Of a DNA stretch of 64,000 nucleotides, positions 14,947 to 27,604 are shown one piece after another (position 1 is the first letter of the stretch; each line of letters starts with the position of its first letter). The position numbers and the translations under genes were made by a program. The DNA lies in NCBI RefSeq assembly GCF_013167455.1, contig NZ_CP038328.1; one strand, written 5' to 3'. The DNA comes from Escherichia coli O157:H7 (GTDB lineage: Bacteria > Pseudomonadota > Gammaproteobacteria > Enterobacterales > Enterobacteriaceae). The notes beneath the pieces were generated by a model. It ran no database searches. It had not been told where the DNA came from and saw only the letters and a program-made list of their open reading frames with translations.

Positions 14947-14956
14947 TTATTCATTT

Positions 14957-14985
14957 GCCGGAGTGGGCGAACACCCACTCCGGCA
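14957..14985. terminator. Bidirectional hairpin between artJ and the sulfatase gene
   Basis: ccggagtggg-cgaaca-cccactccgg perfect 10-bp stem between convergent genes. Confidence 0.5.
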
Positions 14986-14996
14986 AAATCACTTCT

Positions 14997-16478
14997 CTAC
15001 GCTAATCCCAGGCGCTGAAACTGCTCTGGCGGCGCATCATTATCTTTCATCAACTGAATCAGCAACGCGATCATCCGGGACTCGATCACATCATCATGAA
15101 TCGGATGTAGCTGCTGCGGATCGTTTTGCAGATCAAACAGCAAATGACCAAACTGATTCAACCCCTTATATTTTTCCTGTGCCGGGATGCGTAATACCTG
15201 TAACCCTTTGGTAAAACGAAACGGTGGGGCCAGCGATAAAGCCCGCATCTCATCCACCGGATAGCGGCTGTTCATTTTGCAGGACATCAACGTGTAGTTG
15301 GCAATATCATCCTCACGCCCCGGCAGCGCTGCACGCATATACACATAACGCCCATCAGTTACGTTAGCATGACCACTGAAAACACCAAACATCGCCGAGC
15401 TGCGTACTGGTTCATCGTGACTGACCGTTTTCGCCAGCGGTTGCCCCTGCACATCGGGCGGCACTGGCTGTTGAAAAAAGTCATACAACGTTGGCGCCCA
15501 GTCGATCATTTGTACCAGTGCCTGTCGCCGCTCTCCTTTTACACCACTGCGCGGGTTCCAGATAAACAACGGATTATTGGCAACTTCGTTGTAATAAGGC
15601 ATCTGGTTTTTCGCCCACCAGCCATGCTCACCGAGTAAAAAGCCGTGGTCAGTGCCGACAATCAGCATGGTATCTCGCCACAGATCGTGCTCATCCATCA
15701 GGTCGAGAATGCGCCCCAGGTTGCGATCGCACATCGACACCAGCGAACGATACCGGCAACGGATGTGCTCCACGGCCTCGTCGCTTTCCTGCACCCGGCC
15801 ACGCGGCCAGTCATAATGCGGTCCATCCCAGTTATCTTCATACAAGGAAAGATACTCTTCCGTTGTGTGAAACGGCTCGTGCGGATCAAACGTTTCGATC
15901 TGCAATAACCAGTTATCTTCCGCGTGATTTTTGTGGATAAAGGCACAGCCTGCATCAAACACTTTAGTTTGTGGAAAATCCGCTTCCTGCTGAATATATT
16001 CCCGGTTTGCCCAGTCATGGCGCCACAGACCAGAAACACCGCCACCGGTCTGCTTTTGCGGCACCCGTAGCACCTCGGGAATAGGCGGTTGCGCAACGCT
16101 TGCATGCCAGTGATCGCCTTCCTGTCCGCGCACAATCTCCCACGAACTGTAGCGATTATGATAATTCCCGCCGCCATCTTCCCAGTAATGCAAATGATCG
16201 CTTATCAGGTGGGTATAGATCCCCGCCTTTTTAAGCAGCTCCGGCATGGAATCGTCAAACGGTTCTAACGGCCCCCACTCCCGATGCAGGAAGTTACATC
16301 GCCCGGTATGCAACTCCCGCCGGGCAGGCATACACGGCATACTGCCGACGTAACTGTTTTCAAAGGTGGCGGCATGAGCCGCCAGACGTTGGAAATTAGG
16401 CGCTTTGGTTAACGCATCGCCATAAGGTGGCAGATAACGTTTATTCAGACTATCGAACAGCAGAATAATCGCTCTCAT
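14997..16478 (-). CDS. Cys-type sulfatase (formylglycine-dependent), no signal peptide, predicted cytoplasmic
   Basis: 493-aa ORF with the sulfatase signature C-x-P-x-R...TGR (SMPCMPARRELHTGR) near the N-terminus; N-terminus MRAIILLFDSLNKRY lacks a signal sequence; absent from this position in K-12. Confidence 0.8.
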   Translation of the reverse strand: MRAIILLFDSLNKRYLPPYGDALTKAPNFQRLAAHAATFENSYVGSMPCMPARRELHTGRCNFLHREWGPLEPFDDSMPELLKKAGIYTHLISDHLHYWEDGGGNYHNRYSSWEIVRGQEGDHWHASVAQPPIPEVLRVPQKQTGGGVSGLWRHDWANREYIQQEADFPQTKVFDAGCAFIHKNHAEDNWLLQIETFDPHEPFHTTEEYLSLYEDNWDGPHYDWPRGRVQESDEAVEHIRCRYRSLVSMCDRNLGRILDLMDEHDLWRDTMLIVGTDHGFLLGEHGWWAKNQMPYYNEVANNPLFIWNPRSGVKGERRQALVQMIDWAPTLYDFFQQPVPPDVQGQPLAKTVSHDEPVRSSAMFGVFSGHANVTDGRYVYMRAALPGREDDIANYTLMSCKMNSRYPVDEMRALSLAPPFRFTKGLQVLRIPAQEKYKGLNQFGHLLFDLQNDPQQLHPIHDDVIESRMIALLIQLMKDNDAPPEQFQRLGLA

Positions 16479-16489
16479 TACGCCCTACC

Positions 16490-16810
16490 TTATTGATTAA
16501 TTAAATGCGGAAAATGTTGCTGAACCACTTCATAAATTTGCTGACCAATAGTTTCACCGTCCATAATATTCTCTATCGGAATCAAATATTGCCCTTGTTT
16601 CGGGTCAAGACTAACCACATCGAGTAATTTTTTGGAAATAGCAAAAATATCCGCCCAGTCGGTAAATCCGCCGACTTCACCTGCGGCGGTATGTTCCATT
16701 TCAACTTTGAAATCATATTTGGTCAGCGCTTTTTTAACGACCGTTTGTAACATAACGCTACTGCCTACACCGTAACCACAGACAAACAGAATATTAATTG
16801 TATCTTTCAT
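16490..16810 (-). CDS. PTS EIIB component (ascorbate/SgaB-UlaB-like family)
   Basis: 106-aa protein with N-terminal ILFVCGYGVGSS phospho-Cys loop typical of UlaB/SgaB-type IIB. Confidence 0.7.
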   Translation of the reverse strand: MKDTINILFVCGYGVGSSVMLQTVVKKALTKYDFKVEMEHTAAGEVGGFTDWADIFAISKKLLDVVSLDPKQGQYLIPIENIMDGETIGQQIYEVVQQHFPHLINQ

Positions 16811-16831
16811 TTTTAAACCCTTAATATTTAA

Positions 16832-18175
16832 TTAACCCGCGTAAGGACCAAGATGGAATGTTGCAGCGATAAATTTCAGAACTTCACAAATAGCAGGCCA
16901 TACGGTTGCCCAGTCAAATATTCCTGTCCAGCCGACGCCATTTTCAGCAAGCCCGGTTAACGGAATAGCCCACACCGTACCGAAGGTCTGAATAATACCC
17001 AGCAAGAACGTACAGATAATTACGGAACGGTATCCGCCCATGCGGTTTGCTAATACGCCAATTGGACCGCCAGAGAAAAACAGAGGTACAAAGCCAGGCA
17101 ATACCATAATTGGGCTGTGAACCAGTAATAAGATCCCCATCGAAAAAATGGTGCCAAAAGTACAGAAGACGAAGCCTAACGTTGCGGCATTGGGTGAAAA
17201 AGGTAACAGCGCTGCAACATCGACAGCAGGAATAGCGTTAGGAATAAAGCGATCTTGCCAGCCTTTAAACGAACCGTTAATTTCGCCCACCATCATGCGC
17301 ACACCCTGCAGCAGAATGACCATATACATGGAGAACTGTAAGCCAAGGTTGATGATATAGATGTACCAGGGCTTGCCTTTCGCCATTAACTGGACATTAT
17401 CGATACCCGTTGATAGCAAGAAACCACCGACAAACAGCGTCATCACAATGGCGATAGCCGTTACGTTATGGTTAAAAATCGCCAGCCACCCGGGAAGTTT
17501 CAGGTTTTCAGCATCGTGCTTTTCAGGGTCACCAAATTTATGGGCGAATTTGGAGAAAAACCACAATCCCAACATCTGGTTATGAGCAATGGTAAAACCG
17601 GCATCTTTGGTAACTTTGGCAATGGGCTTAACAATGAGCGTGGTGGAGAACGCCCAGAATACACCCGTTAATATTCCGGCAATAATAATGGATGTAGTCC
17701 AGCTAAAACCCAGCCAAAAGACAATCAACCATAATACCGCCTGAGAATGTGAAACACCGGTATTCCCTGTCAAAAATATCCCTTTGGCACCAGTATACCG
17801 ACCAAATAATACCAGCAGCAGGTTGGTAAAAAACGCCAGTACAAATACATACCCGACATAACCAAAATTATCCCCCAATGCAATTTGCGTTGCCGCTTTC
17901 ATTGCGTAGGAATCCATTAAATATCCGTGAACACCATAGGCTTTACTTACGGCTTCTGCTACCGGTTTAAATGTTGCGGAAAACTGGAAACCACCAAATA
18001 ACACCATCATTAATCCCACCATGGCGCTGACCATGCCGGTAATAATTTTTATTGGCGATTTCTTATCAAGGGCATAACCAATACCCACCAGCAAACCAAT
18101 TAAAATTGCCGGTTCAGTTAAAAACGTTTGAATAACATCTATGAATTTGGCAAACATCGTCGGAACGCCCTCCAT
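16832..18175 (-). CDS. PTS EIIC permease (ascorbate/SgaT-UlaA-like family)
   Basis: 447-aa polytopic membrane protein adjacent to the IIB gene; start may be the Met 18 nt downstream (MFAKFIDV...). Confidence 0.7.
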   Translation of the reverse strand: MEGVPTMFAKFIDVIQTFLTEPAILIGLLVGIGYALDKKSPIKIITGMVSAMVGLMMVLFGGFQFSATFKPVAEAVSKAYGVHGYLMDSYAMKAATQIALGDNFGYVGYVFVLAFFTNLLLVLFGRYTGAKGIFLTGNTGVSHSQAVLWLIVFWLGFSWTTSIIIAGILTGVFWAFSTTLIVKPIAKVTKDAGFTIAHNQMLGLWFFSKFAHKFGDPEKHDAENLKLPGWLAIFNHNVTAIAIVMTLFVGGFLLSTGIDNVQLMAKGKPWYIYIINLGLQFSMYMVILLQGVRMMVGEINGSFKGWQDRFIPNAIPAVDVAALLPFSPNAATLGFVFCTFGTIFSMGILLLVHSPIMVLPGFVPLFFSGGPIGVLANRMGGYRSVIICTFLLGIIQTFGTVWAIPLTGLAENGVGWTGIFDWATVWPAICEVLKFIAATFHLGPYAG

Positions 18176-18361
18176 ACGCGTACATTTCCGTTGTCAATGC
18201 ATGAACCTTCTGCTGACGTTAATAATGTCTCAGGAAATTTTGTGTTTCGCTAAGCAATGCCTCTGTATGTATTCGGTAAGTGCACTGTAGTAATCAAAAC
18301 AGTTCAATTAAAGATCTTATTTGATTATTTGTGATTTGATTTGCAAAAATAGAGCAATATA

Positions 18362-18404
18362 TAACCGTGATCGATCGGTTATTATTAATCGATCGATCAC
18401 GATT
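18362..18404. promoter_or_regulatory. GATC-rich inverted repeat upstream of the PTS/sulfatase operon (candidate operator or Dam-sensitive site)
   Basis: aaccgtgatcgatcggtt-N7-aatcgatcgatcacgatt: two 18-bp arms (16/18 complementary), each with a GATCGATC core, i.e. four GATC sites within ~40 bp. Confidence 0.4.
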
Positions 18405-18454
18405 ATTATTTTGGATGGATGTATGCCGAGGTGATATTGATTTGAATGATGTAT

Positions 18455-19582
18455 TTACATTTTTACCAGCAGCGTCAGCACTTCATAGTGCGCGGTGTGC
18501 GGGAACATATCAAAAAGCTGTACCCGTTCGATGCGGTAACCTGGCAGTTCGCGGATATCTTTCGCCATGGTTTGGGCGTTACAGCTGGAGTAGATAATAA
18601 AACGCGGTGCCATCGTTGAGAGATAATCACACAGCGGTTTACCAATGCCGCGGCGCGGCGGGTTAACCAGCACCAGCTCCGGCACCTCCCCCTGAGCGGT
18701 GGCAAACTGAGTGGAGTCCAGCGCCTGAAATTGCAGACGCGTTAAGCCCAGTTCAGCGGCTGACTGCTTTGCACAGGCAATGGCCTCTAGCGCAATTTCG
18801 ATCCCGGTTAACTGCATGTCAGGCGTCGCGCAGTGTAAACCAAAGCCCCCCACACCGCAGAACAGATCCCACATATGTTTAACCGGCAGCTGTCGTACCC
18901 AGTCGCGCGCGGTAGCGTACAGCTGGCTGGCGACCGCCGGATTAGTCTGGAAGAAACTTTGCGGACGGATCCACAGCGGCACATCGTTAAAACGCTCTAC
19001 CAGCGCCTGTTGTTCGGTCAGGTAGATCTCCGTCTCCCCTTCCATAATCGCCATATGTACCGGCTGAATATTGACGGTGATAACTTTTAGCTGCGGCAAT
19101 TGTGCCTGTAACCACGGCAATGCCTTACGCAGTTGTGCTAGTTTGGTTTCAGAACGCAGTACAAAGCGCAGCATCATGCCGCCATCGCTCTGGCTTTCAG
19201 TCAGCAGAATGTATTTCAGTTCGCCACGCTTACGCGCCACGTTGTAGGGCGTTAACCCCGCTCGGGCGATAAACGGTTTTAGCGCCGCAAAAACGGGCGC
19301 AAATGAGGCAGGATAAAGCGGGCAGTCACAAAGGTCTTCCGGTGTGCCGTCGCGATGCAGCATACCGAGCAGTGGTTTTTCAACGCTACCACTCACCACC
19401 ATTTTGGCTTTATTACGAAACCCTTGTTCCGGGCCTGACACCGGCGCGCACCATTCCTCAACCGGAAAGTCGGCGAGCAGATTTTTAAGATCGGCGGTTT
19501 TAGCGGAGAGTTGCTCTGGAATCGGCTGCGTTATCCACTGACAGGAACGACAGCGACCCGCGTCGTAAAGTGCGCACTGCAT
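18455..19582 (-). CDS. rlmC: 23S rRNA (uracil747-C5)-methyltransferase
   Basis: 375-aa ORF with N-terminal Cys cluster (CxxxxxCxxC) and SAM-MTase domain; RumB/RlmC length. Confidence 0.9.
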
Positions 19583-26193: not shown

Positions 26194-26916
26194 TTAGCGC
26201 GTCGCCCAACCCTGTTTGTGCAAATAATCCAGAATAAATGGGCGGCTTTCTTTAATGATTGTTCGGCGGATATGATCGCTCCAGGTATCCCGGCGATTAT
26301 TGCTGCCACGGGTGAGGTAATATTCAGCCAGTTGTTCGTCATACTGCGCCAGTGCGTCTTTATCCAGCGGTTGATAGCTGTTTTCATGCACCAAAATGGA
26401 GGACGGTAAACGCGGCTTAAGATCCGGATTATCCGCAGGCCAGCCAAGGCACAGCCCAAACAGCGGCAGAACATGCTGCGGTAATTTCAGCAGTTTCGTC
26501 ACCGCTTCAATATTATTGCGCAGGCCGCCGATATATACCCCGCCCAATCCCAGCGATTCCGCTGCGGTTAATGCATTCTGCGCCATCATTGCCGTATCAA
26601 CGACACCGAGCAGCAATTGTTCCGCCAGGCCAAGCTGAGCATCCGGACAGATCTGTAAATGGCGGTTAAAGTCGGCACAGAACACCCAGAACTCCGCCGC
26701 TTGCGCTACGTGTTTTTGCCCGCCGGTCAGCGTCACCAGTTCTTCACGTAACGCTTTGTCGGTAATGCGAATAATGCTACTGCACTGCAAAAAACTGGAA
26801 CTGGACGTCGCACGGGCGCTGTTAATAATCGCCTCACGCTGCGCCTCGGAAATGGGTTCATCAGTGAAATGGCGAATGGAGCGATGGCCACAAGTAAGTT
26901 CAATGGTTGGCGTCAT
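26194..26916 (-). CDS. nfsA: Oxygen-insensitive NADPH nitroreductase A
   Basis: 240-aa nitroreductase-family protein in conserved position next to rimK. Confidence 0.9.
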   Translation of the reverse strand: MTPTIELTCGHRSIRHFTDEPISEAQREAIINSARATSSSSFLQCSSIIRITDKALREELVTLTGGQKHVAQAAEFWVFCADFNRHLQICPDAQLGLAEQLLLGVVDTAMMAQNALTAAESLGLGGVYIGGLRNNIEAVTKLLKLPQHVLPLFGLCLGWPADNPDLKPRLPSSILVHENSYQPLDKDALAQYDEQLAEYYLTRGSNNRRDTWSDHIRRTIIKESRPFILDYLHKQGWATR

Positions 26917-27187
26917 TATCTTTTTCTCTTTCTGAACGTGAATACTGCGGTGGACGGTTCATCAGCTGTGGGGCAAGACGTTTTGCCACCTGAAGAATAA
27001 CCACCACCGCAGCGGGAAGCATGAGCAAAACACCGAGAAAAATCATCAGAATCTGCACTTCTGGCCGAGAAAATGGCTCAGGCAGCGACAGGGAGTCGCT
27101 TACCGACAGCAGCGCCACCGCCAGCAACATCATTCCGATAAATTCCAGTATCAACACGCTTTTAGGCAATTTACCGATCGCGCGCAT
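26900..27187 (-). CDS. ybjC: Small membrane protein YbjC
   Basis: 95-aa hydrophobic ORF overlapping the nfsA start; ybjC-nfsA operon arrangement. Confidence 0.75.
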   Translation of the reverse strand: MRAIGKLPKSVLILEFIGMMLLAVALLSVSDSLSLPEPFSRPEVQILMIFLGVLLMLPAAVVVILQVAKRLAPQLMNRPPQYSRSEREKDNDANH

Positions 27188-27346
27188 ACGCTTCCCTCTG
27201 CAAAGTGAACCTTCAGTCTAAAACTTTTCACTGTATTGTGTTTAACAGTTATAGCTTTTAGCAATTAATGCAACAGGTTAAACCTACTTTCAGCGAATAC
27301 ATTTTAGCGTGATCATTACAGGCATAAATCTATGAGGAGAGAAATA

Positions 27347-27604
27347 ATGCAAACCGTTATTTTTGGTCGTCCGGGTTGCCCTTACTGTGTGCGTGCAAAA
27401 GATCTGGCTGAGAAATTGAGCAATGAACGCGATGATTTTCAGTATCAGTATGTAGATATTCGTGCGGAAGGGATCACTAAAGAAGATCTACAACAAAAGG
27501 CAGGTAAACCCGTAGAAACCGTGCCGCAGATTTTTGTCGATCAGCAACATATCGGCGGCTATACCGATTTTGCTGCATGGGTGAAAGAGAATCTGGACGC
27601 CTGA
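27347..27604 (+). CDS. grxA: Glutaredoxin 1
   Basis: 85 aa from the internal Met; active-site CPYC (MQTVIFGRPGCPYCVRAK). Confidence 0.92.
   Translation: MQTVIFGRPGCPYCVRAKDLAEKLSNERDDFQYQYVDIRAEGITKEDLQQKAGKPVETVPQIFVDQQHIGGYTDFAAWVKENLDA

Follow-up and report, generated by a model that had tools for sequence, protein, structure and literature searches.

We analysed a 64-kb stretch of DNA from E. coli O157:H7 (hereafter, the window), in which the region of interest is 100% identical to strain PV15-279. Between artJ and rlmC lies a three-gene islet encoding an ascorbate-family PTS EIIC, a PTS EIIB and a sulfatase, and the gap between EIIC and rlmC contains an inverted repeat with four GATC (Dam) sites. 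The features of the locus are as follows.

14946, plus strand: end of artJ
14997-18175, minus strand: three-gene islet (EIIC, EIIB and sulfatase), 3' of the hairpin
14997-16478, minus strand: sulfatase, islet gene
16490-16810, minus strand: PTS EIIB, islet gene
16832-18175, minus strand: ascorbate-family PTS EIIC, islet gene with its start at 18175
18176-18454: EIIC-rlmC intergenic gap of 279 bp, containing the inverted repeat
18283-18348, minus strand: promoter/regulatory block of 66 bp, gap-free across genera in alignment A4 and outside the hairpin
18284-18289, minus strand: putative -10-like hexamer TACAGT, TAnnGT in 7/7 aligned taxa
18330-18345, centre 18337.5: candidate CRP-like site, TGTGA-TTTGAT-TTGCA on the plus strand (TGCAA-N6-TCACA in the reading of the block)
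18349-18360, minus strand: A/T-rich flank on the operon side, TATATATTGCTC, directly 3' of the hairpin
18361-18406: inverted repeat/hairpin found by the repeat search, with arms 18361-18381 and 18386-18406 and a 4-nt loop at 18382-18385
18369-18376 and 18391-18398: two GATCGATC cores holding the four GATC (Dam) sites, which start at 18369, 18373, 18391 and 18395
18370, 18374, 18392 and 18396, plus strand: target adenines of the GATC sites
18407-18414: A/T-rich flank on the rlmC side; on the minus strand an A-tract before the hairpin, within AAAATAATAAT, and on the plus strand a T-run after the hairpin, TATTTTGG
18455-19582, minus strand: rlmC, co-directional and upstream of the hairpin, stop codon 18455-18457 (RefSeq annotation of the identical O157:H7 sequence)

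The islet is carried by 566 of 5426 complete E. coli genomes, and no regulator gene is encoded in it (only EIIC, EIIB and the sulfatase). In islet-free E. coli genomes, homology resumes at ~18462-18465, within the last rlmC codons. In the artJ-rlmC gap, these genomes have REP-like repeats and, overlapping the rlmC stop codon, a GC hairpin, indicating that a structure 3' of rlmC is the norm. The same islet of three genes occupies this site in Salmonella too, where the order is rlmC - EIIC - EIIB - sulfatase - artJ. Across the 5426 complete E. coli genomes, the inverted repeat was detected at one locus in all 566 genomes with the islet and at none in those without it; the search returned two places per genome, which we infer to be the palindrome matching both strands. 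A search of the literature for the combination of rlmC, sulfatase and PTS genes, methylome studies included, found nothing on this locus.

The arms of the repeat are 21 nt each and 90% complementary. An earlier note on this DNA had described an inverted repeat with 18-nt arms beginning at 18362, and such arms are indeed present, although the first of them starts one base later. The 18-nt cores, AACCGTGATCGATCGGTT in arm 1 (18363-18380) and AATCGATCGATCACGATT in arm 2 (18387-18404), are complementary at 16 of 18 positions. The palindromic core reported for each arm was recovered as well, with GATCGATC occurring twice and all four GATC falling within 30 bp, and the distance to the EIIC start, given there as ~190 bp, was measured as 186-188 bp 5' of the EIIC ATG. 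On its other side, the hairpin lies 48 nt 3' of the rlmC stop codon. The rlmC/EIIC-sense (minus) strand of the O157 hairpin reads ATAATCGTGATCGATCGATTA-ATAA-TAACCGATCGATCACGGTTAT.

The repeat exceeds chance by far. In the window, 0.04 occurrences of the arm 18-mer are expected when up to 3 mismatches are allowed, yet it is present in both arms. The folding z-scores were -4.8 as RNA and -7.0 as DNA, and none of 200 shuffles was equally stable. The predicted RNA folding energies of the two strands are -26 and -28 kcal/mol (the rlmC-sense strand having -26), and the predicted DNA fold of the repeat is -16.7 kcal/mol. In a fold of the 131 nt that span the rlmC stop codon and the hairpin (18330-18460), the hairpin was the sole stable structure. 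The density of GATC is less remarkable and by itself weaker evidence than the repeat. The four sites form the densest GATC cluster of the window, and random placement of the window's 298 GATC put four within 30 bp somewhere in the 64 kb in ~8% of cases; there are four sites because one GATCGATC core recurs in both arms.

The Salmonella islet loci have a hairpin at the same position as in E. coli. On the rlmC-sense strand, it reads AATCATGATCGATCGAT-AAAAAAC-TCCGATCGATCATGGTT in S. arizonae and AAATACAATCAATTGATTA-TTTA-ATTCAATTGGTTGTATTT in S. enterica, and the S. enterica hairpin has a folding energy of -20 kcal/mol and zero GATC. Roughly every second arm position has changed between E. coli and S. 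enterica with complementarity preserved, and the double changes are mostly of the transition type (G-C to A-U, C-G to U-A and U-A to C-G). G-U intermediates are found in extant strains at four pairs, namely 13-50 in O157, 15-48 in TUM20902, 16-47 in Salmonella L105 and 19-44 in S. enterica, the last of which is now C-G in S. enterica L103. The 48 nt that separate the hairpin from the rlmC stop codon can no longer be aligned between E. coli and Salmonella.

Covariation was counted in alignment A5, which holds 12 distinct Escherichia/Salmonella variants and a 21-pair helix (an earlier version with 10 sequences was also run). Standard pairs occupied 92.6% of the stem cells in the 12 variants, compared with 17-43% when the partner was slid by 1-3 columns. 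Both sides were changed in 8 of the 21 stem pairs, a count in which the events are not independent, since the 12 variants represent only about three deep lineages. None of 500 shuffles reached the covariation score. Counted as G-U versus A-C, the wobble events numbered four on the minus strand and two on the plus strand, and overall pairing was about equal on both, so that neither strand is favoured. As a short tandem repeat, (ATCG)n, the stem shows slippage, as seen in a 4-bp deletion in E. coli KK05-19. Together, these comparisons indicate that since the split of Escherichia and Salmonella the pairing was kept, and that the readable sequence and the Dam sites were not.

The number of GATC sites varies accordingly among the relatives. 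Four are present in Escherichia spp., S. arizonae and Salmonella L105, three in S. diarizonae and in KK05-19 with its 4-bp ATCG deletion, and none in S. enterica (L006 and L100-L104) or in L009, in all of which the hairpin pairing is still kept. The GATCGATC cores are retained in every Escherichia lineage sampled, and in S. arizonae, S. diarizonae and L105. In the explanation that we prefer (below), the GATC content is incidental: it would be the ancestral stem sequence in Escherichia and in arizonae/diarizonae-type Salmonella, and the conserved function would not need GATC.

Next to the hairpin, on the operon side, lies the promoter/regulatory block, which is common to Escherichia, Salmonella, Silvania, Leclercia, Yokenella, an Enterobacteriaceae MAG (L011) and a short metagenomic contig (L098). 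The invariant pattern in alignment A4 is TTTTGCA.AT..A.TCACAAA.A.TCA......ATCTT....TGA.....TTTGAT...TA..GTG, and it includes an inner dyad, AATCA...TGA...TTTGAT. The CRP-like half-sites and their 6-nt spacing are conserved across genera and the spacer sequence varies. A match to the CRP core alone is not significant (23 were found in the window versus 26 expected), and conservation across genera is the one support of the CRP reading. For the -10-like hexamer, T74, A75, G78 and T79 of A4 are invariant. Read in this way, transcription would start near 18277 with the CRP-like site at about -61, and the control of the operon most likely sits in the block at 18283-18348. No second copy of the block was found in E. 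coli genomes, for example at another ascorbate-type PTS operon. Metagenome matches to the degenerate block pattern TTTTGCAWATNNNANTCACAAAWA (55 loci) were rejected as chance matches, with no EIIC relative detected by tblastn at any of them.

The hairpin follows rlmC and not the operon. Silvania, Leclercia, Yokenella and L011 have both the operon and the block, and the hairpin is absent from all four; in taxa without rlmC upstream, conservation ends exactly at the upstream edge of the block. Only where rlmC is upstream and co-directional, as in Escherichia and Salmonella, is the hairpin present. In Yokenella, a co-directional histidine-kinase gene lies upstream of the operon, followed by a different, GC-rich hairpin (GTTGCCGC..GCGGCAAC). 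Silvania, Leclercia and L011 have a divergent arylsulfotransferase gene upstream and no hairpin, and L011 shows only a vestige, GATCATGGT, beside the block. The fallback suggestion of the earlier note, that the repeat marks the junction of the islet with rlmC, is thus closer to the truth than its operator reading in that the hairpin is found only with a co-directional upstream rlmC. The junction itself, however, is ~56 bp away (18462-18465), and the far end of the islet lacks a partner repeat. No words of at least 7 nt are shared by the two islet boundaries in either orientation. A mobile-element end, an attachment site and a dispersed repeat (REP- or MITE-like) were ruled out, given the single locus and the lack of a partner repeat at the artJ-side boundary.

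As the GATC sites were lost in relatives in which the shape of the hairpin was kept, an ordinary hairpin at the end of a transcript, though one of unusual length and GATC content, is most likely, and not an epigenetic switch. Our preferred explanation, held with moderate confidence, is that the repeat is a structure-selected terminator/insulator hairpin of a non-canonical type at the 3' end of the rlmC transcription unit. It would act in RNA, possibly on the rlmC-sense strand. Minus-strand transcripts leaving rlmC would fold into a stem of ~21 bp, 48 nt past the stop codon, with a conserved A-rich run on one side and a conserved U-rich run (UUAUAUAUU) on the other. The hairpin would then end the rlmC mRNA, stabilise it, or both, and it could shield the PTS-sulfatase promoter, which lies immediately downstream with its CRP-like site, from read-through of rlmC. 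Because the A/T-rich flanks are symmetric, it could also halt antisense transcription coming from the promoter region of the operon.

The rlmC-side flank AATAATAA is invariant in 12 of 12 variants (A5 columns 5-12), as is the operon-side flank TTATATAT (12/12, A5 columns 51-58). The last stem bases together with the operon-side flank make up UUAUAUAUU, an interrupted U-tract (6 of 9 U) on the rlmC-sense strand. Several properties are those of intrinsic (Rho-independent) terminators, above all of bidirectional ones, which likewise place a stem-loop past a stop codon with a conserved A-rich run 5' and a U-rich run 3' of it. The stem-loop follows a same-strand stop codon shortly (48 nt from rlmC, -26 kcal/mol, z = -4.8), and it is the structure rather than the sequence that is conserved among orthologues (8/21 pairs, 92.6%). 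The hairpin thus looks terminator-like from both directions, and its structure is kept by compensatory change.

Other properties depart from those of typical intrinsic terminators. Their stems are short (typically 5-14 bp) and G+C-rich, whereas the stem of the hairpin is much longer (21 bp) and more AU-rich, its G+C content being 43% in E. coli and well below that in S. enterica, and the sense-strand U-tract of the hairpin is interrupted. In E. coli, UUAUAUAUU on the minus strand fails the T-run criterion of a simple terminator scan and the plus strand of the hairpin is called terminator-like. The same scan of the hairpin region made no call on either strand in S. enterica and none in Yokenella. 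The genes on either side of the putative terminator are in tandem and not convergent. No credible ORF was found for a small ORF or divergent sRNA that would end at the terminator-like side on the plus strand, and this candidate was rejected. A plus-strand promoter-like match in S. enterica (TTGTGA-18-GATAAT) was rejected as unsupported, having failed the same scan in E. coli. An Rfam search of 17800-18800 at a permissive threshold returned sub-threshold noise only (microRNA precursors, and RsaJ at 18 bits versus 100) and no known family.

Our confidence in the terminator/insulator hairpin is limited to this level because it is non-canonical on the rlmC-sense strand (a 21-bp AU-rich stem and the interrupted U-tract UUAUAUAUU), because the scan calls only the plus strand in E. 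coli and neither strand in S. enterica and the wobble pairs pick no strand, and because the covariation comes from about three deep lineages. A comparison can be drawn with REP elements and similar stem-loops whose 3' position stabilises the mRNA upstream of them, as the artJ-rlmC gap of islet-free E. coli holds REP-like repeats and a GC hairpin. By analogy, the hairpin could fill the same 3' role for rlmC in islet-bearing strains. REP elements differ in being a dispersed, GC-rich family, whereas the hairpin is single-copy and AU-rich.

Complementary arms would likewise be kept in a symmetric DNA site, or in a quasi-palindrome repaired by template switching. According to one alternative, which we consider unlikely, the repeat is a DNA-level palindrome without a selected function, or a cruciform or nucleoid-protein site, and it may be a relic of the islet-rlmC arrangement kept complementary by template-switch correction. 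The wobble counts that favour neither strand agree with it, as do the slippage of the (ATCG)n stem in KK05-19 and the vestige GATCATGGT in L011, which suggests decay where rlmC is not adjacent. However, the hairpin outlasted the Escherichia-Salmonella split while the adjoining 48-nt spacer diverged past alignment, and template switching inside the palindrome leaves the invariant A- and T-rich flanks unexplained. The single copy per genome and the missing partner repeat at the other islet end also argue against it.

Somewhat less probable still is a role in RNA processing or attenuation, in which the stem (~21-26 bp) in read-through rlmC-EIIC transcripts would be a substrate of RNase III or a regulated attenuator, and would uncouple or tune the two units instead of terminating outright. 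At about two helical turns, the length of the stem suits a double-strand-specific nuclease more than it suits a typical terminator, the U-tract on the sense strand is weak, and the structure is kept by covariation. On the other hand, the islet has no antiterminator or RNA-binding regulator, and the operon's own conserved promoter block argues against a reliance on read-through.

We regard a methylation-independent operator as improbable. Here, an unlinked factor would bind two palindromes of 10-12 bp (ATCGATCGAT in E. coli and AATCAATTGATT in S. enterica) that lie 17-18 bp apart, and a short palindrome is indeed present in each arm in both genera with nearly constant spacing. Between the genera, nevertheless, CGATCG in the core is replaced by CAATTG, and CGTG in the outer arm by TACA, changes that a conserved protein would not tolerate, and the palindrome within each arm is retained because of two transition-type compensatory pairs. 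Neither a conserved half-site nor a nearby regulator, as expected of palindromic operators, was found, with about half of the arm positions differing between E. coli and S. enterica. The repeat is also absent from the other operon-bearing genera, and copies of the half-site in the window are not above chance. The earlier note had suggested looking for further half-sites in the genome; none beyond chance was found within the 64-kb window, and the repeat is single-copy in each islet-bearing genome. The absence of diverged half-sites holds for the window, as BLAST against 28 Gb is blind to an isolated 18-nt half-site with mismatches.

The reading that the earlier note had favoured, an operator of a Dam-dependent switch like those of pap and agn43, appears very unlikely. 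A regulator bound to the GATCGATC arms would compete with Dam, and the PTS-sulfatase operon would switch heritably between ON and OFF, as pap, agn43 and opvAB do. The repeat does resemble the switches of pap (Lrp), of agn43 and of Salmonella opvAB and gtr (OxyR) in that it places clustered GATC in an intergenic region 5' of an accessory operon. It would also fit that the cluster of four GATC in 30 bp is the densest of the window, that the repeat lies ~107 bp upstream of the putative transcription start, which is workable for upstream operators, and that the GATCGATC cores are retained in all sampled Escherichia, S. arizonae, S. diarizonae and L105. In known Dam switches, the GATC sites lie within Lrp or OxyR sites, form two alternative sets over roughly 50-100 bp and are conserved with the switch. 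The four GATC of the hairpin, by contrast, are two copies of GATCGATC without an Lrp or OxyR motif, and the cluster is the automatic product of the repeated core, at a density matched by ~8% of random placements.

The comparative data count further against a Dam switch. S. enterica and L009 have lost every one of the four GATC and have kept the hairpin by compensatory change, so the sites are dispensable in S. enterica. An operator should accompany its operon, and the hairpin does not travel with it, being missing in four enterobacterial lineages that keep the operon and the promoter block. The islet is also without a regulator gene. In 18340-18430, no match to the OxyR or Lrp consensus was found below 3-4 mismatches, a level found 322-594 times in the window. 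The scan used consensus strings known from the literature, and as a control it recovers the OxyR-type site at 27251-27287 upstream of grxA. The literature searched, including that on unmethylated GATC in O157, yielded no methylome or single-cell findings on this locus.

Least probable of all is that the stem is a Dam/SeqA-responsive element as well, for example a terminator/insulator or upstream site whose efficiency would vary with methylation or with hemimethylation after replication; this reading starts from the two GATCGATC cores, which Escherichia and the arizonae/diarizonae-type Salmonella have retained through a long divergence. If the stem did respond in this way, expression of the PTS-sulfatase operon would be coupled to the cell cycle or heterogeneous, and this layer would have been lost in S. 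enterica. The GATC clusters bound by SeqA at oriC and the dnaA promoter offer a comparison, in that the close GATC sites of the hairpin would be jointly hemimethylated after replication and could bind SeqA transiently. The cluster in the hairpin is far smaller and isolated, has no link to replication control and is not conserved in S. enterica. A Dam effect restricted to the Escherichia lineage could formally still operate.

These results leave the current understanding of Dam regulation and of termination unchanged. The finding is foremost a correction, in that the GATC cluster invites the story of an epigenetic switch, and Salmonella and the four enterobacterial lineages show the GATC sites to be dispensable and the pairing to be conserved. 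The analysis also maps the control region of an accessory operon that is so far uncharacterised, encoding an ascorbate-family PTS and a sulfatase, that is carried by O157:H7 and many Salmonella. The map includes a candidate CRP-dependent promoter block that is directly testable, and a hairpin that follows the co-directional rlmC neighbour and not the operon.

The regulatory DNA of the PTS-sulfatase operon (EIIC, EIIB and sulfatase genes; window 14997-18175, -) includes a 66-bp promoter block, which adjoins the GATC-bearing hairpin on its operon side. In the alignment, this block was conserved without gaps in at least five enterobacterial genera, and it was found in one copy per genome in E. 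coli. It contains the following features, the CRP-like and -10-like elements being named from their conservation:

18283-18348 (-), the promoter block
18330-18345, within the block (-), CRP-like site TGCAA-N6-TCACA
18284-18289, within the block (-), -10-like element TAnnGT
within the block (-), inner dyad AATCA...TGA...TTTGAT

The inner dyad may be an operator for some specific regulator. A fifth GATC (in AGATCT, window 18313-18316) also lies inside the conserved block. The promoter-block alignment showed this GATC to be limited to Escherichia, with AATCT at the position in Salmonella and the other genera.

The neighboring hairpin (18361-18406) varied in E. coli KK05-19 (locus L004), where a 4-bp deletion of ATCG in one arm, equivalent to window positions ~18387-18390, removes one GATC. 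The deletion fits slippage in an (ATCG)n microrepeat. KK05-19 is one of the 3 genomes, out of 566, that fall within the 80-90% identity band.

At the other boundary of the islet, a second structure lies between two convergent genes:

14957-14984, GC-rich hairpin GCCGGAGTGGG-CGAACA-CCCACTCCGGC, between artJ and the sulfatase gene

It was not called by a simple terminator scan because a T-run is absent on both sides, and it is likely a 3'-end structure common to artJ and the sulfatase gene.

The scan for OxyR motifs had a positive control within the window, a site that departs from the OxyR tetramer consensus at only 3 of its 22 specified positions. This strong match is probably the known OxyR site of grxA:

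27251-27287, OxyR-type site, between a ybjC-like ORF (26900-27187, -) and grxA (27332-27604, +)

Beyond Enterobacteriaceae, the nearest relatives of EIIC were found in Firmicutes, with 56-70% identity. A fuller operon is that of Neobacillus niacini:

L020 1174-9276, genes for a PRD-type regulator, a formylglycine-generating-enzyme-like protein, EIIA, EIIC, EIIB, a sulfatase and a UlaG-like ascorbate-6-phosphate lactonase

In comparison, the enterobacterial islet lacks EIIA, the regulator and the sulfatase maturase. The presence of the lactonase in the Neobacillus operon hints at a sulfated ascorbate-like substrate. In Yokenella regensburgei, whose operon likewise adjoins artJ, a gene for an OmpR-family response regulator and one for a histidine kinase (L016 2499-4690) lie immediately upstream in the same direction, and are candidates for a dedicated regulator of the operon. 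Neither E. coli nor Salmonella has them in its version of the operon.

The 90%-identity protein cluster with EIIC (that of P0001) also includes RlmC proteins, a database artefact that calls for caution with cluster sizes. The chimeric Salmonella ORF P0004 (563 aa), which contains EIIC, shows that fused ORF calls do occur at this locus, and our guess is that an rlmC-EIIC fusion call bridged the two families.

In islet-free E. coli (L002 1320-1500, compared with window 14947-18465), the artJ-rlmC gap holds REP-like repeats and a GC hairpin, and rlmC ends in different codons from those of islet-bearing genomes. The islet occupies the identical site in Escherichia sp., E. whittamii and Salmonella. 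Together, the comparison of the two site forms and this shared position suggest that the islet is an old insertion later lost from most E. coli, rather than a recent gain in O157.
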